DNA of 64,000 bases from a virus (taxonomy: Duplodnaviria; Caudoviricetes), in IMG/VR virus record IMGVR_UViG_3300021426_000001; one strand, written 5' to 3'. This document shows positions 7,455 through 60,968 of the stretch, piece after piece. The translations under genes and the position numbers were made by a program. The notes beneath the pieces were generated by a model that saw only the letters and a list, made by a program, of their open reading frames with translations, searched no databases and was not told the origin of the DNA. Position 1 is the stretch's first letter. Each line of letters opens with the position of its first letter.

Positions 7455-7461
7455 AGTTTAT

Positions 7462-8142
7462 TTATACCTCCCTCAAAGGCGTCATTCTCTGATATGTTAT
7501 CGTCGCGTCTATCGTTCTGATAGTCTCATTGCCCTCGTTAGTGTTCTGCTCGGCGCCAAGCTTTGAGACATAGCAGAACTCGTACTTGTATGCCTGAACC
7601 GTCGCAGCCTCGGCTACCTTGTCAGCGCCGTCTGTCGGATCATACTGGTTCACTCGCTCGACATCGTATACTCTCACTATCATGTCGAAATAGAAGCATG
7701 GAGGCAGCGTTGGACGAGTGTTTCCGTCCGTCTGGTAGTCTAGGCCGTCTGCCTGCATAAGCTGCTCCAGAATGAATCTAATGTCCCTCTTGATGTTGTC
7801 ATTGAAGGTGAGCGTTATGCTGTGCGCTTGGTCATATCGGCTGGAGTAAGTCTTGTAGTAGCCAGGATAGAAGATGTTGAATGTGCCCGCTGGCTCTGGG
7901 TGCTTGATGGGGATCTTAGCTACTGCCTTTCCGAGCTTGTTCATCCACTCTTCTCTGCCGAACCTTCCAGTAGAGTTTAGCTTGTCCACGACATCCTGAA
8001 GAAGCTTTGGTGGATCGCCCTGAATCTCTACTCGGTTCTCCTGAATATCCAAGTCCTCGGAGAGAATGAACTCTACCGTGAAAGCCCAGTTCGGCTCTGG
8101 CTTGACATCGAAGAACGGATTTTTGAAGATGTTGTACATCAC
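7462..8142 (-). CDS. Tail tube (gp19/gp54)-fold protein
   Basis: WAFTVEF...SITLTFND...YKYEFCYVSKLG...IDATITYQ tube-fold pattern. Confidence 0.6.
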   Translation of the reverse strand: MMYNIFKNPFFDVKPEPNWAFTVEFILSEDLDIQENRVEIQGDPPKLLQDVVDKLNSTGRFGREEWMNKLGKAVAKIPIKHPEPAGTFNIFYPGYYKTYSSRYDQAHSITLTFNDNIKRDIRFILEQLMQADGLDYQTDGNTRPTLPPCFYFDMIVRVYDVERVNQYDPTDGADKVAEAATVQAYKYEFCYVSKLGAEQNTNEGNETIRTIDATITYQRMTPLREV

Positions 8143-8696
8143 TCCTCCACTGGGTGGACATCGAAGTTGTCATAGGCCACGTTAGCAGTGAGACGATAGA
8201 TCTCTGAGCTAGAGGCGTCAAGGTCTGTCCATCCGACATCCTTCACGTTGCAGTTGTAGAGAGTGTAGACGAGTCCGCTCTCGAACTTCTGATCTCTGAC
8301 GATCAGCTCGATCTTATCGAACTTCTTGTTGAACTCTACGTGCTTGTAGCGCTGATCCTCGTCCATGAATGCGTTTCCGATAGGGACGCCGAGGAATTGA
8401 ATGAGCTGCATGTTCTGCTTTGCGTTGCAGCGCATGTAGAACTCGACTGGAATCTCTCCTCCGCGATCTGAGTTGATCACGTCCCTGCGGTATGTGCCGA
8501 AATACCAGCGCTTAGCGAGTACGTTCGACTGCTTTGGCGTTCCAGACCTGAACGGATAGAACTGATTTGACTCAGAGGCCGCGTATCTGAACGTGAAGCC
8601 AGTGCTGTCGTAGAATACGACTGAGAACAGGTCCGTTCTCATCGGATCTGCGAATGTGTCTAGCTCGCTCGTAAAGATGTTGTATTGCTCTTCCAT
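8139..8696 (-). CDS. Tail tube-fold protein
   Basis: DPMRTDLFSVVF...YTLYNCNVKDVGWTDLDASSSEIYRLTANVAYD. Confidence 0.65.
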   Translation of the reverse strand: MEEQYNIFTSELDTFADPMRTDLFSVVFYDSTGFTFRYAASESNQFYPFRSGTPKQSNVLAKRWYFGTYRRDVINSDRGGEIPVEFYMRCNAKQNMQLIQFLGVPIGNAFMDEDQRYKHVEFNKKFDKIELIVRDQKFESGLVYTLYNCNVKDVGWTDLDASSSEIYRLTANVAYDNFDVHPVEE

Positions 8697-8704
8697 CGGT
8701 TCTC

Positions 8705-9346
8705 CTAATTCTCAGGGTTCGGGTCAATAGAGTATTTCATGAACGAGAATGATGCGCTCGGCTGAATGAATCCAGCGCTCTCGTAGTCAAGCTTGTATGC
8801 GTAGTCGTAGTCAACGAGACGACAGCTCCTGAAGATGTGTGTCAGGACCTTCTTGTGCAGGTTGTTGTCCCAGATGTGAACGCGAATCTCGTCAATGTAG
8901 CGATACGGATTGTAGCTCATTCTGGACTTGTCCACGTCCTCGTCGTAGAAGTTCTTCGCAAGGCAGTACTTGAGAAACTTCATCGCATACTGTCTCTCTG
9001 TCTCGTGGAACTTGATCTGGAACGGATTTGGCTTGTCCTTGTTCGGTACATAGATGACTCTGGTCGTGTTGCAGTACTTGAGATCGACCTCTCCTGGCTT
9101 ATAGGTCGGAGGCGTGAATCCTGTGCAGTTCTTGAAGGTGAAGAGTCTGTGCTTGTAGTTGGCGTCATCTACGCTCGTCTTTATTCCGTAAGCGGTCACG
9201 TCCTGCGGAGTGAAGTACTTGTTCAGGTTGGTGTCCCTCTCCCTCTGCCAAGACGGCTCACGGTCAGAGATCTCGACGCTGTAGGCATCGGACATCTTGA
9301 ATGACTTAGTGACCAAGTAGTCTTTTATGGAGAATTCTGGATCCAT
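8705..9346 (-). CDS. Tail tube-fold protein
   Basis: FQIKFHET...IRVHIWD...HIFRSCRLVDYDYAYKLDYES...ASFSF. Confidence 0.55.
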   Translation of the reverse strand: MDPEFSIKDYLVTKSFKMSDAYSVEISDREPSWQRERDTNLNKYFTPQDVTAYGIKTSVDDANYKHRLFTFKNCTGFTPPTYKPGEVDLKYCNTTRVIYVPNKDKPNPFQIKFHETERQYAMKFLKYCLAKNFYDEDVDKSRMSYNPYRYIDEIRVHIWDNNLHKKVLTHIFRSCRLVDYDYAYKLDYESAGFIQPSASFSFMKYSIDPNPEN

Positions 9347-9676: not shown

Positions 9677-11233
9677 CTATTTATCCTCGGTGAGGGCTTT
9701 GAGCTTCGCCGTCTCAGTTTCGATTCTCTGTCTTGACTCCTTCAGGAGACGGTCGTAGTAGTCCTGATTCTCGTTGAACGTCTTCATCGCGTGCATCTTG
9801 TCGCCAGTGTAGCCGCCCATCTTGTACTTTCTAGCGTCAAGGAGCTTCTGAGACTTTATCTCACGCTGTACTTCTTCCTGCTCTCTGATTATCTTCTGAG
9901 CTGCCTGAATCTTAGCAGCCCTCTCGTCCATGTGCTGAGCTTTCTTTCCGTCCTTGCGCTCCTCGTACCACTGATCTGTGCTCTGAGTGTCGTTCATCTC
10001 GACTGCGCCAGCGTCTCTGAAGTTCTCACGAACCGTCTCGTTCTCCCACTTGACTAGAGATTCCACGTCGCGGTCGAACGCTCTCTTCTTATCCATTATC
10101 TGAGGTACGAGATCCCATTGAGGAAGATCATAGCTGGTCTTTCCTCCCTCCTCGACGACTGCTTGCTGAGCAGCTATCACTTGATTCTTCACGGTCTTCT
10201 CATCAGCAGTCAGATCGATTCCATACTTCTGGAACTCCTTTACTTTGTGCTTCTCGACGAGCGCATCGACTTCTGGCTGGAGAACAGCCTCTACAGCCTC
10301 TTCTCGCTCCCTAGCAGTGACATAGTCGCCGTTCGACAGCATTCCGTTCTTGTCTGCCTCTTTTCTGGCCTCGGCCACAGCAGTCTCGCGCTCTTCTTTG
10401 GCTTTTCTCTTCTCTTCGTCGAGAACTTTGTGAGCGAAGTCGACAGCTGCCTTGTCATCGAATACATCGTCAGAGAGGACCCTCTTGTCTGTCTCTGTGT
10501 CTCTCTTCCACTCGCTCGTAGAGTCCGGTCCCTTGCTGTTCGGAAGCTGGAGATCTGATTGTCTCGGCTCCTGATCCAGTGAGTTGAGCTTGATCTTGTT
10601 CTTGCTCGCGTACTCGTTGCTGATGTCGTTGAAGACGATTGTCGTGCCCCATTCGACGCAGTCTTCTGAGCTGTAGTCGAACTCTACCTCGTCTAGCTTC
10701 TCTGCGAAGCAGTCCTTGAAGTAGTATTGAGCGACGACATCAGCGTCGAAGTTCTGAGTGCCGCTTATGACTTCTTCCCCAGCAGCGTTCCTTCCGAAAG
10801 TCACGGCAGTGTCGACATTGTTGGTCACTCTCGGATCGAGAATCTCTACCAAGAATATGACATCCTGGCTGAAGTCTGAATACTTCGGCGCATACTTGTT
10901 TCCGTCTGCGGCCTCGATCTTGTCCTCACGGTTGTCGTAGGTTCTGCGGAATATCTTCAACAGCTGCTTGTAGACAGAGAGATTCTTGTCGTCATAGAAC
11001 TTGACATTGAAGCTTCCTGAGTTGCGGTAGCGTGTCGGAACGTGGAAGTTCATTCCTCCGAAGTGGACCTGAAATGTCATCACTTCCATGTCTGGCAGCT
11101 GCACCTCTTTCACAGCCTGTCTGAGCTTCAGAATCTCCTGCGGAGGATCTCCGATGAACACAGTCAAGCGGTACGCCCACGGAAGTCCGGGCATATCGTC
11201 GTAGAAGTCATTGTGAAAGATGTTGTACTGCAT
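9677..11233 (-). CDS. Tail tube-fold domain plus charged helical C-terminal extension
   Basis: VKEVQLPDM...SGSFNVKFYD...YYFKDCF...FDYSSEDCVEWGTTIVF, then ~300 aa E/K-rich helical region. Confidence 0.6.
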   Translation of the reverse strand: MQYNIFHNDFYDDMPGLPWAYRLTVFIGDPPQEILKLRQAVKEVQLPDMEVMTFQVHFGGMNFHVPTRYRNSGSFNVKFYDDKNLSVYKQLLKIFRRTYDNREDKIEAADGNKYAPKYSDFSQDVIFLVEILDPRVTNNVDTAVTFGRNAAGEEVISGTQNFDADVVAQYYFKDCFAEKLDEVEFDYSSEDCVEWGTTIVFNDISNEYASKNKIKLNSLDQEPRQSDLQLPNSKGPDSTSEWKRDTETDKRVLSDDVFDDKAAVDFAHKVLDEEKRKAKEERETAVAEARKEADKNGMLSNGDYVTAREREEAVEAVLQPEVDALVEKHKVKEFQKYGIDLTADEKTVKNQVIAAQQAVVEEGGKTSYDLPQWDLVPQIMDKKRAFDRDVESLVKWENETVRENFRDAGAVEMNDTQSTDQWYEERKDGKKAQHMDERAAKIQAAQKIIREQEEVQREIKSQKLLDARKYKMGGYTGDKMHAMKTFNENQDYYDRLLKESRQRIETETAKLKALTEDK

Positions 11234-26396: not shown

Positions 26397-26482
26397 GCTT
26401 AAAATCTCCTTAAATTTCGACGGGTACAACCCGTCTCTCGTTTAGATTATTTATACCGAGTTGTCAAGGAGATTAGTTGAGT

Positions 26483-27976: not shown

Positions 27977-28014
27977 AGTTCAAATCTCCTCTTGAGTTCA
28001 CGCTATTTATAGCG

Positions 28015-31000
28015 CTATCTCAAGAACTTCCTCTTCGCCTTCGTCATCTTGTACTCGATGTAGTCCTTGCGAGAAGCAGACCAGCCGATGACCTCGAACA
28101 GAGCGTGGAACACGGACATGAAGAACTTCTCGAAGGTGGTGTCGTAGTCGACTGTGAAGATGTCGTCGAACTCCTTTGGCCATGTCTCGAAACCGATGAC
28201 TTCGAATCCGTACTTGTTGTTCGGATAGACGAAGAGATACTTCGCCTTCGAGCCTCTCTGGAGCGGATCTATCGGGAACTTGTTCTTCGCGGCGATGTAG
28301 TTGTGGTAGATGGCGATCTTGCAAGCCTGATGGGTGCCTGACGGAATGTTCAGTCCGTTCTGCACATACCAGTCCATTTCGTGGTCGAGGTATTTTCTCA
28401 CGTCTCCGACAGAGCGTGAAGCTGAGATGTCGTCCAGCTTGGCGTCCCTGAAGACAGAGTATGCATCTTGTATCTTGCGGATCGTCTCTTCCTTTGATGC
28501 GCCGAGAAGCACATCTGCTGTGATAGACACTGCCTTGTCCTGGCAGAACGGCGGGAACTCAGCCTTCTTGAGAACGAGGCCCTGAATCTTCAAGTGCTTG
28601 TGAGGGTCCTCTTCGTATCCGAAGAACTTTCCGTCCTTGTCGACGACTGAGCCGAGATAGAGCTTCTTGCCGTAAGAGATGAAGTTCGAGAACATGTTCT
28701 CACGGGTGAAGATGATTCGGTTAGTCATCTTGTTCTTCTCAGCCTTCATGTCTAGAATGACCTTCCAGAACCAGTTCATCTGCTTCTCCATGCAGTAGAA
28801 CCACTCCATGTCGTCCATGTACGGGAATAGTCCGATCTTGTGCTCGTCGAAGCAGTAGTAGTTGGAGTCCGTGTCCACCTGAACGACGACAGAGGCACGA
28901 TCTACGAAGCTAATCGGCTTCTCGATGACGTTCACGCAGTCGATTGCGTTTCCGTCAACCGTTGCGCCGCGAGCTAGGTCAAATCCAGTGACGGTCTGTC
29001 CCTCTGCGTTGGTGAAGCGTGCGCCGCCGTCAACGACTGAGATCTTCATCTTCATCGCAGTGTCGTTCAGAACGACCTCGATTGTCTCGTCGAGCTTGAA
29101 GAGATGGCACTCGCCCTTGTAGACCACGTTCACGAGCTTCTCAGTAGTGATCTTCTTGATAGGCTTGAGCGGCTCATGCTTGGTGAGGTCGTTGATGTAG
29201 AGGTCGATTGCAGCGCCATTTATCGTGTTCTTGGCGGTTATGTCGACGGCCTTGAGTTTACCCTGATCAGTCTCGACTTCGTCCTCCTGCTTGTACCATT
29301 TGCCGTTTATTCGGATGACTGGGAAGAACTTCATCGAGTCGCGAAGGATCTGCTCAGAGCGGTAGTATTTGTCCGTGTTGTCCTTGAGGTAGCGGATAGT
29401 GACACGAGCGCAGCGAGTGATCGAGCGAGCGCAGTCGATGTTGAAGAGGTGGAAGTTCTTGTACAGGCAAGCGCCGTATAGAGAGTTGATGAGCTTCTTA
29501 CGGGTTAGCTGAAGAGTGCGGTAGCGGTCAGCTGCGACAAGATCTCCCTTCTTCTCAGCGTCCTGCATGAGCAGCTTGAACTTGAGACGTTCGTCGAAGA
29601 TCTTTGACACGACAGACGGAAGAATTGCGTCGTCTGTGCGAAGGAATCCAACTCCGTTGACTTCTGAGCGGATAACGCGACCAGAGGCGATGTCCTCGGC
29701 GGTAGGCTTGATTACTCTCGTCTCAGGCGAGATGTTGTACATGATGATGTGGTTCGGGTAAGAAGAAGTGATGTCGCCCGACATGTTGTGCTGATAGCGG
29801 CCCGGATCTGCGTAGCAGTAGCCAGCCTTCACAGCGTATGGCTCGAACGAAGTCGGAGACTCGGGAGTGCAGTTCTGATACTCAATTATTCCGTTTCCGA
29901 GATCCTTCTTGAAGTAGCCCTCGTCGTGCCACCAGTCGGCTGGCTTCTCGTACATGTCGTTGTAGACCTGATCCTGCGCGTGAAGGAATCGCATGATGTA
30001 GCCGTCATGGGCAGAGGTCATCGCGAACACGTTGTCAAGGCATATCAGAGCTTCATTTGCGTAAGCGATCGTGGTCGGCCATAGACGCTTCTTAGCCTCG
30101 ATCTTGACCATCAGACGGACGTCCTGGACGTTATACTCGACGTAGGTCGTGTAGTCTTTGATGTAGTGCTCAGAGAGACCGTAGTCAAGCTTGACCTTTC
30201 CCTCTTTAACTTCCTTCTGACCGATGTAGTCGAGCTTCCAAGACGGAGAGTTCTTCACGAAGCCGATGAACTTGTACAGCTCCAGATAGTCCATCATGTA
30301 GAGGCCGGGAGAGCTGTAGTGGTAGCCCGTGATGATTCCGTTGTCGTCTGTGATTGGACGCTTCTGGACTGGCATCTTCAACGGCGACAGGAGACGAGTG
30401 AAGTCTCTCTTCTCGCCATGCTCTGCCTGAAGTCTGCGCATTCTGTTGATGATGTAGCTGTCATCGAACTTCTCTGAGTTCCAGCCAGTTAGCACGTCGA
30501 AGTGCTGCTGCCAGAACCAGATGTAGAAGTCCTTCATCATGTCGATCTCATTCTCGAACCATTTGTAGTTCGTGACTTCTGGAGAGTTGCCATTGTACGG
30601 CTCAAGACCCCAAGTGTAGGTCTGGTCGGTGACGGTGCTGTACACAGTGATCAGGTTGATGGGGTAGTTGGCGTCTTCTGGGTTCGGGAACTCTTGGTTG
30701 ATGAAGCAGCTGTCGTAGTAGCGCTTCCACTTGTTCTCTACGATGTCGAAAGCCTCGTACTTCTTCGTGTTTCCACGGTGCTCGAAGTCATAGATTGAGA
30801 TCGTCTCTTCATTCTCGGTGCCGAGAGGACGAACACGAATCTTCGTCTTCATCGGATAGCGTCTGGAGGTCTGTGTTTCAATATCGTAGAAGGCGATGCG
30901 GTAGTCCTTGTACTCTTCGTAGGTCAGCTCGGCCTTGTCATACTTCTCGTGGATGAACTTGACTGGCGCCTTCAGGTCCGACTCCGCCAAGCGCATCTTT

Positions 31001-31212
31001 TTCTTTAGGACCTTGTATGTCGCAAAGTCTTCCTTCGTATTGCACACCATCTGCTTCATCGGAACACCGAAGCAGTCACGGATCTTCGACTTCTTGTCTG
31101 GATCAGGCATGAAATACTTGAACACATAAGGGTACTTCTTGTACTCTAGGGAGCCCACCTCTCGCTCATAGATGGTGTTCGACTCTCTGTCATAAAACAC
31201 GTTCTTATACAT
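28015..31212 (-). CDS. Family B DNA polymerase (gp43-like) with two insertions
   Basis: ExoI DIET, ExoII GWNSEKFD, ExoIII YNVQD, motif A DITSSYP, motif B KKLINSLYG, motif C DTDS, and KKLY. Confidence 0.95.
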   Translation of the reverse strand: MYKNVFYDRESNTIYEREVGSLEYKKYPYVFKYFMPDPDKKSKIRDCFGVPMKQMVCNTKEDFATYKVLKKKMRLAESDLKAPVKFIHEKYDKAELTYEEYKDYRIAFYDIETQTSRRYPMKTKIRVRPLGTENEETISIYDFEHRGNTKKYEAFDIVENKWKRYYDSCFINQEFPNPEDANYPINLITVYSTVTDQTYTWGLEPYNGNSPEVTNYKWFENEIDMMKDFYIWFWQQHFDVLTGWNSEKFDDSYIINRMRRLQAEHGEKRDFTRLLSPLKMPVQKRPITDDNGIITGYHYSSPGLYMMDYLELYKFIGFVKNSPSWKLDYIGQKEVKEGKVKLDYGLSEHYIKDYTTYVEYNVQDVRLMVKIEAKKRLWPTTIAYANEALICLDNVFAMTSAHDGYIMRFLHAQDQVYNDMYEKPADWWHDEGYFKKDLGNGIIEYQNCTPESPTSFEPYAVKAGYCYADPGRYQHNMSGDITSSYPNHIIMYNISPETRVIKPTAEDIASGRVIRSEVNGVGFLRTDDAILPSVVSKIFDERLKFKLLMQDAEKKGDLVAADRYRTLQLTRKKLINSLYGACLYKNFHLFNIDCARSITRCARVTIRYLKDNTDKYYRSEQILRDSMKFFPVIRINGKWYKQEDEVETDQGKLKAVDITAKNTINGAAIDLYINDLTKHEPLKPIKKITTEKLVNVVYKGECHLFKLDETIEVVLNDTAMKMKISVVDGGARFTNAEGQTVTGFDLARGATVDGNAIDCVNVIEKPISFVDRASVVVQVDTDSNYYCFDEHKIGLFPYMDDMEWFYCMEKQMNWFWKVILDMKAEKNKMTNRIIFTRENMFSNFISYGKKLYLGSVVDKDGKFFGYEEDPHKHLKIQGLVLKKAEFPPFCQDKAVSITADVLLGASKEETIRKIQDAYSVFRDAKLDDISASRSVGDVRKYLDHEMDWYVQNGLNIPSGTHQACKIAIYHNYIAAKNKFPIDPLQRGSKAKYLFVYPNNKYGFEVIGFETWPKEFDDIFTVDYDTTFEKFFMSVFHALFEVIGWSASRKDYIEYKMTKAKRKFLR

Positions 31213-31679: not shown

Positions 31680-31716
31680 TTTGGAATTCTCCTATTTCCT
31701 TATAGCTTATTTATAC

Positions 31717-32086: not shown

Positions 32087-32299
32087 CTAGTCGCAGAGGA
32101 GCTGCGGGCCTGAGGACTCCTTCAAGTAGTAAGTGACTTCCTCGCCAACGCTCTCGATCTTCTCGATCTCGAGGTTCATCGAAGAGAGCTTGTCCTGAAG
32201 TTTAGACGGGTTGATGATGTCGGCCTCACTGAGCGGTGCTGCGCCCTGATTTCTGACTCTTCCCGAAATTACGAATCGTGTCATAAATTGATTCTCCAT
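32087..32299 (-). CDS. Hypothetical protein
   Basis: GATAAATA at 32310-32317 upstream. Confidence 0.6.
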   Translation of the reverse strand: MENQFMTRFVISGRVRNQGAAPLSEADIINPSKLQDKLSSMNLEIEKIESVGEEVTYYLKESSGPQLLCD

Positions 32300-32419
32300 T
32301 TTTATTGTATATTTATCACATAGAACTAAGCTAAATCAGCTTTTGTAAAGATCTTTTTACATAAATCTTCGCAAAACGTTGAGAATTTAGAAGCTCGATT
32401 CAGTATATATATTTGGATC

Positions 32420-32516
32420 AAAAGATCAACTACTACTGGTCGAGAACAGGAGTTTTCAGATCCGCAAGGATCCAAAGATGACTTTCCGAGGTAGTAGGCG
32501 GGAAGTCATCTTTTTT
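32420..32516 (+). ncRNA. Putative ~95-nt small RNA ending in a strong terminator
   Basis: GATCC-GCAA-GGATC GNRA hairpin (32459-32472); 15-bp terminator stem 32474-32513 with T-tract; 5' CTACTACT is complementary to loop GGTAGTAG. Confidence 0.5.
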
Positions 32517-32545
32517 GTTTATCCAAGTTTACAAAACAAAACTGG

Positions 32546-32553
32546 TATAAATA
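32546..32553 (+). promoter_or_regulatory. Late promoter TATAAATA with no credible downstream gene
   Basis: Exact consensus followed by ~860 nt without a credible CDS. Confidence 0.7.
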
Positions 32554-32555
32554 AA

Positions 32556-33220
32556 GCAACCGCAAAAGATTATTAGATTTTGAATTAGATTAGAACTGAA
32601 TAGAACTGAATAAGACGATTTTTGAAGAAGAGCTTAAAAGCACTTGAAGTCACAATAAAGGTCACAATGTCGAGGAGTTCGCTCCAAAAGCATTTCGCAG
32701 GGCTCTTGCTAAACAGAACTGCGATTCTATGCAGGACACATAGTCTTAATAATTTTAGCCGCACAGAGAGAAAGGGCCGAGAGGCATCTGCAGGCTGTGC
32801 GCTGCTGGGGTGGACAGCTGGTCACCCGATGAAAAGTCACTCATCAATGGCCGATCTTGGTCAGAGGCAGCATGAATCCGGGCCGACGAACGAAGTCTAA
32901 GTTCACGGTCTAAATAGCTGAGAAGACGAACGAGATAAAGATCCAGGTGGATCTACGCGATCTCGTTCACATAGCCGTCGCGGCATTTTCGAGATGTAGC
33001 TGGTGTACAGGGCGACCGCATCATAAGCTCGAGAAGTAAGTCCCTAGTAAAGTCGATAGAGCGAGAGGCACACTGAAGATAGCAGGAGGCCCGAAAGGGA
33101 CGCAGGACTGTGATTCTTTGGGAGTCAGAAGTTCAGGAGATTGCTAGTTCCCCGTTTTACGGGCTAGTTGTCTCCTGAGCTCCTGGCTCCTGAAGAATCA
33201 CAGGAGACTTTCTCTCTCCC
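32556..33220 (+). ncRNA. Putative large structured non-coding RNA (~660 nt), family unrecognised
   Basis: Nested stems with + strand G-U wobbles, UUCG/GAGA/GAAA tetraloops, four-way junction 32801-32871, 96-nt hairpin 33108-33203, and 10-bp long-range pair 32765-32774/33208-33217. Confidence 0.7.
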
Positions 33221-33258
33221 AAAATGTCATCATGTCAACACAAAGTCATATCAAATTG

Positions 33259-33348
33259 GCTGTTCATAAGCTGTTCATAAGCTGTTAATAGATTGTTAAT
33301 AGATTGTTCATAAGCTGTTAATAAAATGTTAATAGATTGTTCATAAAA
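33259..33348. repeat. Eight tandem 11-bp units, each with a DnaA-box-like 9-mer TGTT(C/A)ATA(A/G)
   Basis: Units start at 33261, 33272, 33283, 33294, 33305, 33316, 33327 and 33338. Confidence 0.9.
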
Positions 33349-33415
33349 ATGAGGACCGTCTTCGTTAGAAGACGGATGAGCGAAGCGAATGGATGATAGC
33401 TGTGATAAATAGACT

Positions 33416-33733
33416 ATGAGACGAGACTTCACTCCTTATCTTCAACTCATTCTAGAGGGCAACGCTTCTGTTCCCTCGTCGCTCGTGCACGAGACTTCTG
33501 ATGTCCATCGTGAGACTCAATCTCAAGTTGAGATAGTCACTCAGAGAAAGCTGACTCCGCAAGAGAAGTTCCTTTCGATGAAGACAGTGAAGCGAGAGCC
33601 GTTGAAGTCTCCGACGATCACAGTAGCGACTTTCGAGTGGACTATGGACATTCCTCTCAGTCAGCTCCGTGAAGTAGCAGCGAGAGCTAACAGAGAGATG
33701 AGAGAAGCTATAAGAGAGCTGAGAAAATCTTGA
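33416..33733 (+). CDS. Hypothetical late protein
   Basis: GATAAATA at 33404-33411; N-terminal YLQLILE. Confidence 0.55.
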   Translation: MRRDFTPYLQLILEGNASVPSSLVHETSDVHRETQSQVEIVTQRKLTPQEKFLSMKTVKREPLKSPTITVATFEWTMDIPLSQLREVAARANREMREAIRELRKS

Positions 33734-33749
33734 TTTTTAGGGATTTTTA

Positions 33750-33781
33750 GGGTTTACAAGAGAAACCGAAATTCCTATATT
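33750..33781 (+). promoter_or_regulatory. Early promoter
   Basis: GGGTTTACA-N17-TATATT. Confidence 0.85.
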
Positions 33782-33823
33782 GATAGCGTAAAACAAATCA
33801 ACCTTCAACAAGGACCTATCAAT

Positions 33824-34123
33824 ATGAAGATCAAGACTTTCCAATTCCTTCTCTCCAACTTCTGCGGCAACGACCTCCACACTAACGGCTGCTTCAAAGA
33901 GAGCAAATACAAAGCTAATCAGAATACTCCGTACAGCAGCGAGAAGCAGATCGACCGAAAGCTGAATCGCTGGATCGAGAAGAACAATCCGATCATTCAC
34001 GACATCAAGATCACTACTTACACGATCGACCGCCACAACAACGGCGGAGACGACACTGTGGCTGCTATCTACACGATCACTTACGATCTTCCGGCTGGCG
34101 CAGAAGTCAAGGAGGAAGCATAA
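33824..34123 (+). CDS. Hypothetical early protein
   Basis: RBS AAGGA after early promoter. Confidence 0.7.
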   Translation: MKIKTFQFLLSNFCGNDLHTNGCFKESKYKANQNTPYSSEKQIDRKLNRWIEKNNPIIHDIKITTYTIDRHNNGGDDTVAAIYTITYDLPAGAEVKEEA

Positions 34124-34614
34124 TGAGTGTAAATGAGGGAATCATCTACGGAATCATCCTCAGCTTGATCCTCGTATGCATTGGAGGCGGGCTTCACAAG
34201 CTTGACGATCTCTACAACGACAGAGCTGCTCAGAAAGCTTCTCAGGTCATTCCAGAAGATCTGCGAAAGCTCCAGAAGCAAGAAGAGTCGCTCGGCGTCA
34301 CTCAGTGCAAGAAGATGCCTCGGGTGAGCAACCTAGAAGAGTCATGGGCGTGCACTGCTGAGCTGCCAGACGGAACTGTCAAGAAGATACTCTTCGATCA
34401 GTCCACTTTCGACGGAAGAGCGTGCTCAGTCACTATCGTCAAGCCCGACGAGTCTATCGAGAAGCGCGCATACAGCGGAGACGGTCTCCACGTGAAGCGA
34501 AAGACCGTCATCGAGGATGTCAAGACTCGAAAGAAGACCAAGGGAGAGACCGTGGAAGAGCTAGATCCATCAACGTGCCTGTACTTCTTCCAGCAAGTCA
34601 AGCTCGCTATGTGA
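34123..34614 (+). CDS. Membrane-anchored hypothetical protein
   Basis: N-terminal hydrophobic helix GIIYGIILSLILVCIGG. Confidence 0.65.
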   Translation: MSVNEGIIYGIILSLILVCIGGGLHKLDDLYNDRAAQKASQVIPEDLRKLQKQEESLGVTQCKKMPRVSNLEESWACTAELPDGTVKKILFDQSTFDGRACSVTIVKPDESIEKRAYSGDGLHVKRKTVIEDVKTRKKTKGETVEELDPSTCLYFFQQVKLAM

Positions 34615-44552: not shown

Positions 44553-44579
44553 CTTGGTAGCTGGTAGTATAAATAAAAC

Positions 44580-59915: not shown

Positions 59916-60968
59916 TTATTCCTCGTCTTTCTTCTCTTCCGTATTCTTGTTCTCGTCAGACTTCTTGGAATCGTCGGACTTCTTCTCGTCCTTGTCCTTG
60001 TCATCCTTTCCAGTCTTCTTGTCGTCATCGCAGCATCCGCTCTTGCATCCGCCCTTGACTCCAGTTTCGACCTTAGCGTCCTTGTAGAGCTTCATGAAGG
60101 AGAGCTTCTCGTCTACCTTCTGCTCTTCGTTGACTGCTTGTGCTTCAGCTGGCTTGTACTCTTCACCGAGCAGCTCCTTCTTGAGAGCGAGCTTAGCCTC
60201 GTCGATCTTGTGACGGATCTTGGCCTTGATAGCAGTCTCTAGGATAGGATCGAGCTTGTAGAGCTTGCCTGACTCGACGATTCCGATGATAGAACCAGAT
60301 GTGCTGTTGAGCATCTTTCCGAACTTCTTGTTTGCGCGATAGTTCTCTGACTTGAGCTCGTCGCCCTCGGCAGACTCGTCGAGACGGGAAGTGTCGTCAT
60401 CGTCGTCCTGAGACTCGTTCGGCTTGTCTTCAGTGTTCGGCTCAGCTGCCTGCGCTGGCTGTTGCTGTTGCTGATCTCCACCCTGTGCTGGCGGCTGTTC
60501 GTCCTGACCTGCAGCAGCTGCATTGTCAAGATCGAGATCTAGGTTTGGCGGAGCGTTCTGAGCGCTCTGGTCTCCACCCTCTGAAGCTGGTGCCGGTTCT
60601 GCAGGTGCTGGCTCTGCTGGAGCAGGTTCTGCTGGTGCCGGTTCAGCCGGAGCTGGTTCTGCGGCTGGCTGCTGACCCATGTTCTCTACCTTGTCGGTGA
60701 GCTTCTGTAGTGCGACAGCCTGGTTGTTGATAAGATCCTTGAGACCGCTTAGAGTCTGGTTCAGATTCTCGATAGCGCTAGCTTCTTGGCTAGCCTGAGA
60801 GCTCTGCTGAGCGGATCCCGTGCCACCAAGAAGATCTGCGAAATCATCGTCGTCGCTAGGTGTCGTAGCTTCTGGAGCGCCTGCGATATTTTCGGCAGTA
60901 GCTGGCTTCTGAGCGATGTCAGAGAGGAAATCCTCGTTCACTGCAGCTTTTTGGTTCTTAATTGTCAT
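59916..60968 (-). CDS. Acidic low-complexity scaffold/core-like protein
   Basis: (PAEPA)n repeat; VNED, LDES and VNEE sites; late promoter 60999-61006. Confidence 0.55.
   Translation of the reverse strand: MTIKNQKAAVNEDFLSDIAQKPATAENIAGAPEATTPSDDDDFADLLGGTGSAQQSSQASQEASAIENLNQTLSGLKDLINNQAVALQKLTDKVENMGQQPAAEPAPAEPAPAEPAPAEPAPAEPAPASEGGDQSAQNAPPNLDLDLDNAAAAGQDEQPPAQGGDQQQQQPAQAAEPNTEDKPNESQDDDDDTSRLDESAEGDELKSENYRANKKFGKMLNSTSGSIIGIVESGKLYKLDPILETAIKAKIRHKIDEAKLALKKELLGEEYKPAEAQAVNEEQKVDEKLSFMKLYKDAKVETGVKGGCKSGCCDDDKKTGKDDKDKDEKKSDDSKKSDENKNTEEKKDEE

Follow-up and report, generated by a model that had tools for sequence, protein, structure and literature searches.

The 64,000-nucleotide (nt) stretch of DNA considered here (IMG/VR record IMGVR_UViG_3300021426_000001; hereafter the window, at its full length) belongs to a contractile-tailed, T4-like jumbo phage of the rumen, and its sole stretch of more than 1 kb that is poor in open reading frames (ORFs) lies at positions 32300-33415. 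This island is probably a self-contained non-coding RNA cassette of the phage, whose 3' edge holds an unrelated array of DNA repeats. The large RNA of the cassette appears to be a divergent relative of the cow-rumen-2 motif of Rfam which, on comparative evidence, covers just the middle of a far larger RNA whose carriers include jumbo phages and phages of ~400 kb. The size, the phage host range and the tRNA linkage of the cow-rumen-2 RNA are new here, as are a small RNA and a polymorphic phased repeat array.

Read along the plus strand, the island may work as follows. P1, an early or host-type promoter, would make an RNA of ~100 nt whose hairpins, joined by a loop–loop contact, would end at an intrinsic terminator. 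P2, a promoter of T4-late type located 30 nt past the small RNA, would make an RNA of ~660 nt, the 3' two-thirds of which appear to be a divergent and expanded copy of an RNA family of rumen and gut T4-like phages. Most likely this large RNA would act in trans, as a folded RNA late in infection, and not as a primer. The eight 11-base-pair (bp) repeats would constitute a single-copy array of binding sites for a phage protein, and the hairpin behind them would terminate transcription arriving from the other side.

An earlier reading, made from the sequence alone, had singled out this island as the only long gene-free one in the window, about 1 kb from the polymerase gene, and had listed a terminator-ended small RNA, a late promoter, a folded RNA of ~660 nt, eight phased DnaA-like 9-mers and a hairpin at 33356-33375. 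The position of the island and the elements themselves were confirmed, apart from the likeness to DnaA boxes. The same reading had combined them into an RNA-primed or RNA-regulated origin, or into a non-coding RNA plus DnaA-titration module, and had expected them to co-occur in relatives. Large RNA, small RNA and array do co-occur in the window's own lineage, but only there; a range of other loci have the RNA but no such array. The origin "system" is a juxtaposition of separate elements restricted to the window lineage.

Cow-rumen-2 as the centre of a larger phage RNA

The cow-rumen-2 motif (RF02947) was introduced by Weinberg et al. (2017; PMC5737381) and its structure was revised in Rfam 15 (PMC11701678). 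Scans with the core pattern yielded 25 viral and 45 metagenome loci, 36 of them distinct at <97% identity (L- and G-numbers below denote the relative loci and genomes compared); a match in L058 was judged false from the alignment, in which it looks coding-like. The family comprises about 35 distinct relatives, carried by T4-like phages of rumen and gut. Relatives scored against RF02947 reach 72.9 to 107.7 bits (L005 88.1, L006 72.9, G001 98.2, L009 107.7) and pass the gathering score of 66 bits; two polymerase-linked relatives pass it on the strand opposite polB, the DNA polymerase gene, as is the arrangement in the window.

Conservation reaches well past the 106-nt Rfam model, and the RNA measures ~300 nt in A+T-rich phages. 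Collecting homologous loci, as the sequence-only reading had proposed, revealed that the large RNA covaries: an RNAalifold consensus of 32 sequences contains 44 pairs, 24 of them with compensatory changes, and many of these lie outside the Rfam model. A covariance model of the 5' domain (R1), a domain wholly outside the Rfam model, recovers 54 members, including the second of two copies in L070. In the 5'-domain alignment 96.2% of cells pair, compared with 71% in shuffles; two-sided changes occur in 16 of 21 pairs, and the covariation score is 0.637 against 0.173 (0/500 shuffles), with controls using slid partners at ≤0.138. A long-range helix suggested by RNAalifold (TAGCC/GGCTT) was replaced by a local covarying helix. 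Judged from these alignments, the catalogued 106-nt motif is the centre of an RNA of ~300 nt or longer with a strongly covarying 5' domain. A literature search, outside which the supplement of the motif paper fell, found no published description of the larger RNA.

The RNA described here shares with cow-rumen-2 the full 106-position alignment and sources that are all rumen or gut metagenomes. The catalogued motif, however, comprises 106 nt with no stated context, whereas the RNA described here resides in T4-like phages, has its own promoters and a covarying 5' domain, and attains ~660 nt in the window, where the copy scores below the gathering threshold, is without the inner 5' hairpin and contains large insertions. 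ROOL (RF03087) and GOLLD (RF01998) are likewise large phage RNAs (PMC5737381), with structures determined by cryo-electron microscopy (PMC12286853). The cow-rumen-2 family resembles them as a large, ornate, non-coding phage RNA that often adjoins tRNA genes, but its typical member is shorter (~300 nt), and neither the window island nor a typical family member matches either model at E ≤ 10.

Genomic contexts of the RNA family

The surroundings of the RNA differ markedly between phages. In one clade (L026/L039/L046) it is the last gene of arrays with up to 25 tRNA genes, on the same strand and ~65 nt after tRNA-Gly(UCC). In G001, a 98%-complete polymerase relative, it adjoins the gene of a CCA-adding enzyme (PF01743), ~140 kb from polB and with no repeat array behind it. 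In A+T-rich T4-like phages the gene that follows the RNA is T4 baseplate-like, and regA comes two genes after it. Among close relatives there are two slots, one in the gap between polB and w74, an ORF of the operon to the left of the island (L005), the other at the divergent junction (window, L006); L070 has both. Downstream CTCATG motifs of the L005 copy are not common to its close relatives L042 and L070 copy 1. Because the RNA occupies such varied contexts and slots, the cassette can be viewed as an independent, movable transcription unit, and since relatives carry the RNA by tRNA arrays, by the CCA-adding enzyme gene or ~140 kb from polB, the large RNA does not look like an origin-specific primer.

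Two diverged copies are present in some phages. Those of L070 lie at 8685-9027 and 10174-10620, 1.5 kb apart, and L030/L032 are two copies on a single 415,750-bp contig. Contigs of 173-191 kb filed under metagenome-assembled genomes (MAGs) of Methanobrevibacter (L082, L083, L085, L086; JAFQXD010000042.1, JAFRFB010000097.1) also have two copies each, and the 5' domain of one such copy scores 94.2 bits, equal to the IMG/VR phage copy L009. These contigs are probably phage genomes misbinned with the archaeon, or else a hint at the host.

A trans-acting role has been proposed for other large phage RNAs beside tRNA genes, namely ROOL and GOLLD. A link to tRNA or translation is our leading guess at the role of the present RNA, although one that we hold to be less likely than not. 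In T4, the stable RNAs C and D reportedly close the tRNA gene cluster (T4 genome review by Miller et al., 2003). As a lead only, this placement of stable RNAs at the 3' end of a tRNA cluster may be compared with that of the RNA in the L026/L039/L046 clade, the T4 RNAs being much smaller. Often the last gene of a tRNA array or the neighbour of a CCA-adding enzyme gene, the larger RNA joins ROOL and GOLLD as a large phage RNA and offers a full-length target for structural and functional work.

The large RNA of the window

In the window the large structured RNA would extend over ~660 nt (32559-33220, plus strand), with its putative start set by P2 and its putative end by a closing hairpin. Positions 32559-32759 are a lineage-specific 5' extension, and 32760-33220 are the part homologous to the phage RNA family. 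The folding reported by the earlier reading is borne out on the plus strand, where 32745-33225 attains -194.9 kcal/mol (z = -6.1); the minus strand gives z = -3.65.

The core at 32934-33048 (plus strand) aligns with positions 1-106 of the 106 of RF02947 at 58.9 bits (E = 6.6e-10), a match obtained with permissive thresholds; Rfam in gathering mode gives no match on the window, and other Rfam families, RNase P included, do not match either. All helices are present in this alignment, a few non-canonical pairs are flagged, and the conserved blocks AGCCG, GAUGUAGC, ACAGG, UAAGC and GUAAGUCC are kept. The second copy in L070, identical in sequence to L053, serves as an intermediate: it aligns with the window island along its length (73% mean column identity over 1.1 kb), matches the 5'-domain model of the family (56.7 bits) and carries the core pattern. 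When the core is compared with L070 on the minimum-free-energy (MFE) fold of the window, 16 pairs are unchanged, five compensatory, two changed on one side and three broken, a count that is informative in the well-aligned core only.

Other parts of the window copy have been reshaped. A remnant of the 5' domain at 32760-32801 (plus strand), read from the L070 alignment, retains the outer helix with other letters (CGCACAG, 32760-32766, and CTGTGCG, 32795-32801, in the window; CCGGCGA/TCGTCGG in L070). The window copy has lost the conserved inner hairpin (loop CAAYYCAATG), and model R1 does not match the window or its near-identical strain L060 at E ≤ 1. Both a ~200-nt 5' extension and a ~130-nt insertion (32800-32930) are common to the window and L070 copy 2; by eye, three hairpins of the insertion change on both sides (e.g. 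GGGTG...CACCC versus GGGCG...CGCCC). A scan of IMG/VR for insertions of the window type returned nothing. The 3' domain is closed by a long imperfect hairpin (33108-33203, plus strand; 40-nt arms, 80% complementary) found in both the MFE and the centroid folds, which replaces the long 3' hairpin of L005/L006/L070. Because the outer helix is kept with changed letters and the insertion hairpins change on both sides, the window copy looks remodelled, not decayed. Within the 5' extension TAGAACTGAA is repeated 2.2 times (32591-32612), and contigs of related strains from RNA libraries have a 22-nt deletion at 32581, just upstream of this repeat.

Metatranscriptome libraries from four studies yield contigs that cover 32499-33140. 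The one over the large RNA in X17 is the deepest on an 8-kb stretch (109.6), with the w74 contig close behind (105.2) and the others at 6-37, per-contig depth being a poor measure. Two contigs continue from a variant of the small-RNA terminator hairpin into the large RNA. No RNA-library contigs lie over the 5' half of the small RNA or over the array, a gap that is uninterpretable since short RNAs and tandem repeats assemble poorly.

A T4-late-type promoter in front of the large RNA

P2 (32527-32553, plus strand) consists of a GTTTACAA box (32527-32534) and the T4-late-type motif TATAAATA (32546-32553), the late promoter noticed earlier. There are 16 copies of this motif in the window (0.34 expected), with sites that include 7459-7466, 26448-26455, 28004-28011 and 31708-31715 on the minus strand and 44568-44575 on the plus strand, and it also fronts the helicase and tail sheath genes. 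By our reading of the coordinates most copies sit shortly upstream of same-strand ORF starts, and because of this the motif behaves as a T4-late-type promoter, which points to TATAAATA sites as the T4-type late promoters of the phage. The copy in P2 has no ORF behind it. The GTTTACAAAA box in P2 resembles the box that precedes the RNA in A+T-rich relatives, where the RNA starts ~10 nt past a promoter of the form GTTTACAAAA-N14-TAnnTTTG, a form that we take to be of the Bacteroidetes type.

A small RNA with a contact to its own terminator

Upstream of P2 lies a small RNA or leader of ~100 nt (32420-32519, plus strand; fold z = -4.95), with predicted ends. It would be transcribed from P1, a sigma-70-like promoter (TTTAGA-16-TATATT; 32344-32415, plus strand; called by the promoter scan at 32386-32413) that comprises the palindrome TGTAAA-N6-TTTACA (32344-32361), TTTAGA (32386-32391) and TATATT/TATATTTG (32408-32415). 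L005, L042, the two L070 copies and L006 all retain the palindrome and a TATATATAT block ahead of the RNA. Searching with the P1 palindrome brought up 108 matches, mostly unrelated and A+T-rich, and added no new lineages. The hairpins of the small RNA include GATCC-GCAA-GGATC (32459-32472) and an intrinsic terminator with a 15-bp stem (32474-32488/32499-32513) followed by a T-run, TTTTTT (to 32519), in agreement with the terminator-ended RNA first described. The terminator scan missed it because the loop limit of the tool is 8 nt.

Four lineages (window, L005, L042 and L070 copy 1) share the same architecture of P1 with palindrome, first hairpin, short-loop hairpin and terminator. Among 22 predicted pairs, seven have compensatory changes, the terminator stem covaries, and a variant of this stem in RNA-library contigs also differs by compensatory changes. 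In the window CTACTAC (32430-32436) complements the terminator loop GTAGTAG (32491-32497) over 7 nt, and a loop complement of 6-7 nt is present, in different letters, in all four lineages (CTACTAC/GTAGTAG, GTCCAAG/CTTGGAC, GTACAAG/CTTGTAC and GGACAG/CTGTCC) with a nearly constant location (position 22 in the window and 28 in the other three). Shuffled upstream sequence attains the same length of complement in only 25-73 of 2000 trials per lineage. The small RNA is missing in L070 copy 2 and L006, where P1 stands alone. On this comparative evidence it is a newly recognised RNA with a covarying loop–loop contact to its own terminator loop, and it provides a simple system for testing structure-controlled termination.

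A phased repeat array and a hairpin at the 3' edge

Eight tandem 11-bp units of the types CTGTTCATAAG and TTGTTAATAGA occupy 33261-33347 (TRF period 11, 8.0 copies). The units follow TGTTMATARR at exactly 11-nt spacing from 33261 to 33338; there are nine matches in the window against 0.5 expected, a number reached in 0/100 shuffles. The array region has 25% G+C in a genome of 50% and is the only non-coding tandem array in the window. The phasing recognised by the sequence-only reading is real, but no unit matches TGTGNATAA or TTATNCACA: the exact DnaA box (TTATNCACA/TGTGNATAA) has three matches in the whole window and none in 32300-33415. By inspection, all eight units carry T where the DnaA-box consensus has G; four TGTTCATAA units differ from TGTGNATAA at one position, and the TGTTAATAG and TGTTAATAA units at more. 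In the DnaA-titration module that had been proposed, the non-coding RNAs are sound and the DnaA boxes are not.

Relatives vary in this array. The near-identical strain L060 has 11 units where the window has eight, and the corresponding place in L070/L053 holds five units of 11 nt with unrelated, G+C-rich sequence (ACATGAGCGTC). The complete 243-kb genome G004 contains four phased TTGTT.A 11-mers (119938-119978; locus L092), its only such array, which follows the stop codon of the CCA-adding enzyme gene, precedes a terminator hairpin and is ~116 kb away from the RNA. A weak trace of two units is seen in G001 at the far end of the CCA-adding enzyme gene, and the other RNA-bearing loci have no such array within the DNA examined around them.

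The G+C-rich hairpin CCGTCTTC-GTTA-GAAGACGG (33356-33375, minus strand; tail TCCTCATTTT) is present as described earlier and was called terminator-like by the scan; its simplest reading is a putative terminator for transcription from the right. Its stem has a compensatory change from C-G to T-A in L060. In L070 the repeat module abuts the 3' end of a convergent gene, a homologue of the window's 229-aa ORF, and a hairpin of other sequence lies at the same place, ~45 nt past the stop of that gene. Right after the window hairpin comes the 13-mer TGAGCGAAGCGAA (33377-33389), which L060, L053 and L070 share unchanged with the window and which 77 other loci examined lack.

No putative array-binding protein was found among the window ORFs in Pfam, PHROGs or ESM Atlas. 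The RNA site of T4 RegA contains UUGUUA, which resembles the repeat units. RegA was considered as a partner and set aside: w124, placed like T4 regA, is without similarity to RegA, and complete relatives gave no match to PF01818 in a search whose positive control also found nothing.

The T4 origin oriE contains a cluster of evenly spaced 12-nt repeats, or iterons, with similar ones in syntenic regions of relatives, whose role was never established (PMC3016281). The eight units at 11-nt spacing in the window are likewise evenly spaced short direct repeats in a T4-like phage, with an early-type promoter and a switch of transcription direction nearby. They differ from the oriE iterons in a period of 11 instead of 12, in being non-syntenic among relatives and in a polymorphic copy number, and no repEA/repEB-like genes were recognised nearby. 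Across relatives the repeats thus appear in the same place with other sequence (L070/L053), out of synteny (G004) or as a weak trace (G001). After T4, the array is the second case of short, regularly spaced repeats close to replication genes, and its natural variants in sequence, copy number and position could help to settle the role of iterons.

An RNA cassette or a replication origin

Several observations weigh against the island being a trans-acting RNA cassette with an unrelated array. The 58.9 bits of the window core fall short of the gathering score of RF02947, and the window copy may work differently from, or less well than, the rest of the family because the near-invariant 5' hairpin is missing. 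Gene neighbourhood in some clades is the sole basis of the tRNA link, and tRNA genes are missing from the window itself. Contigs give no strand, ends or level, and DNA carry-over into RNA libraries is possible. Finally, the array is A+T-rich, single-copy, beside promoters at a point of divergent transcription and near replication genes, which is what T4 origins look like: an A+T-rich single-copy site by promoters at transcriptional divergence (PMC3016281).

Two alternatives concern what the transcripts do. Instead of being an independent gene, the small RNA might be a cis-acting leader or attenuator, whose loop–loop contact would control how frequently early transcripts from P1 get past the terminator and continue into the large RNA. 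In all four lineages it immediately precedes the large RNA on the same strand, the covarying contact uses the terminator loop itself, and in two studies RNA-library contigs span both the terminator hairpin and the large RNA; separate overlapping transcripts may, however, be merged in such contigs, the large RNA owns P2, and L070 copy 2 and L006 carry the cassette with P1 alone, so that we consider attenuation possible and somewhat doubtful. The same bridging contigs and the early-type P1 upstream would suit a long transcript that runs into the repeats and primes or licenses replication via an R-loop, in the manner of T4 oriF/oriG or ColE1 RNA II. T4 does use origins made of a promoter plus an unwinding element, and the order of promoter, long RNA and repeats is kept in the sole other lineage of the window type. 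The systems have in common a promoter-driven transcript upstream of an A+T-rich stretch, but the transcripts of oriF/oriG and ColE1 RNA II need no conserved fold of this kind and their origin elements lie within ~100 bp, whereas here the A+T-rich array is ~700 nt from P2 and ~850 nt from P1, and ~40 nt and the closing 40-bp hairpin intervene between the RNA body and the first repeat. The RNA is a conserved, intricately folded family that occurs in many contexts away from repeats, which speaks against the RNA-primed or RNA-regulated origin first proposed. Its proximal promoter is of late type, whereas the R-loop origins of T4 depend on early or middle promoters and are silent late (PMC3016281); moreover, the repeats of L070 are G+C-rich and so are not an unwinding element. 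The skew profile, to which the earlier reading had looked for support, is dominated by transcription direction in the window and in the complete relative G004, with no turning point at the locus. Priming by the large RNA is very unlikely. We attach just as little credence to a T4-type origin of new design, in which read-through from P1, gated by the loop–loop contact, would cross the folded RNA to the iterons, and it is equally improbable that in such an origin the transcript would prime at, or open the duplex of, the A+T-rich phased iterons; if true, the start of replication in a jumbo phage would be tied physically to a conserved structured RNA.

The other two alternatives concern the array. 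Independently of the RNA, it could be a protein-bound, single-copy cis-acting DNA site of the oriE-iteron kind, for origin, packaging or partition; its nearest precedent is the oriE repeats of T4. Evenly spaced direct repeats like the 12-nt ones of oriE (PMC3016281), the uniqueness of the array in the window and of its counterpart in the complete relative G004, its low G+C (25% in a 50% genome) and its place where transcription diverges, with polB 2 kb and the helicase gene ~5 kb away, all speak for such a site, and the different repeat with the same period and place in L070 is what co-evolution of a site and its binding protein would be expected to produce. On the other hand, the array is not syntenic (that of G004 follows the CCA-adding enzyme gene, ~116 kb from both RNA and polB), it is absent from the L005-type loci, L006 and all A+T-rich loci within the DNA examined, its copy number is eight versus 11 in near-identical strains, no candidate binding protein was found, the skew is uninformative and the role of the T4 iterons is itself unproven. 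We therefore treat a cis-acting site as a tentative idea that falls short of being probable. That the repeats trap or recruit host DnaA can hardly be credited: although four TGTTCATAA units are one position off TGTGNATAA by inspection, the island contains no exact DnaA box, all eight units deviate by the same base, which gives the array a consensus of its own, and L070 has the unrelated repeat ACATGAGCGTC at the same place.

The phage and the genes around the island

Among the products encoded in the window are a helicase, an SbcC-like nuclease and the tail sheath, tail tube and sheath stabiliser. The polymerase shares 76-77% identity with those of ~245-kb IMG/VR contigs from rumen samples, and the DNA runs that contain the window stretch are sheep and bovine gut metagenomes. 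A blastn comparison of the island with INPHARED phages gave no match.

The island is bounded by divergent start codons at 32299 (minus) and 33416 (plus). To its left a minus-strand operon comprises w70 (a 70-amino-acid (aa) ORF starting at 32299), w74 (74 aa), w124 (124 aa) and then polB (28015-31212), which encodes a family-B DNA polymerase and starts (31212) 1.09 kb from the island; to its right the 105-aa ORF w105 starts at 33416 on the plus strand. Pfam, PHROGs and ESM Atlas returned nothing for the flanking ORFs w70, w74, w124, w105, w99, w163 and w229, nor for a 1850-aa protein of the window.

Each end of the island bears an extended -10-like element, TGTGATAAATA, facing outward to its gene: one at 32310-32320 (minus strand), just upstream of the w70-w74-w124-polB operon, the other at 33401-33411 (plus strand), 5 nt before the ATG of the 105-aa ORF. 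These are the only two exact copies in the window (0.38 expected) and together constitute the 17-nt inverted repeat I3. We infer that they are promoters and, given the spacing, that the mRNA of the 105-aa ORF would be leaderless or nearly so.

Three rightward ORFs of 105, 99 and 163 aa (33416-34614) are absent at the same position in L070, L005 and L006, and the 99-aa ORF has a 63%-identical homologue in G004, ~164 kb away; they appear to be a small movable gene set. GATTTTTAGG occurs twice in tandem (33732-33751) directly upstream of a promoter-like TTTACA-17-TATATT (33753-33781) that precedes the 99-aa ORF. Unrelated to the island, a tandem repeat of period 15 is present in five copies (60586-60662) within a minus-strand ORF; its unit, GCTGGTGCCGGTTCT, would encode Ala-Gly-Ala-Gly-Ser in one frame.

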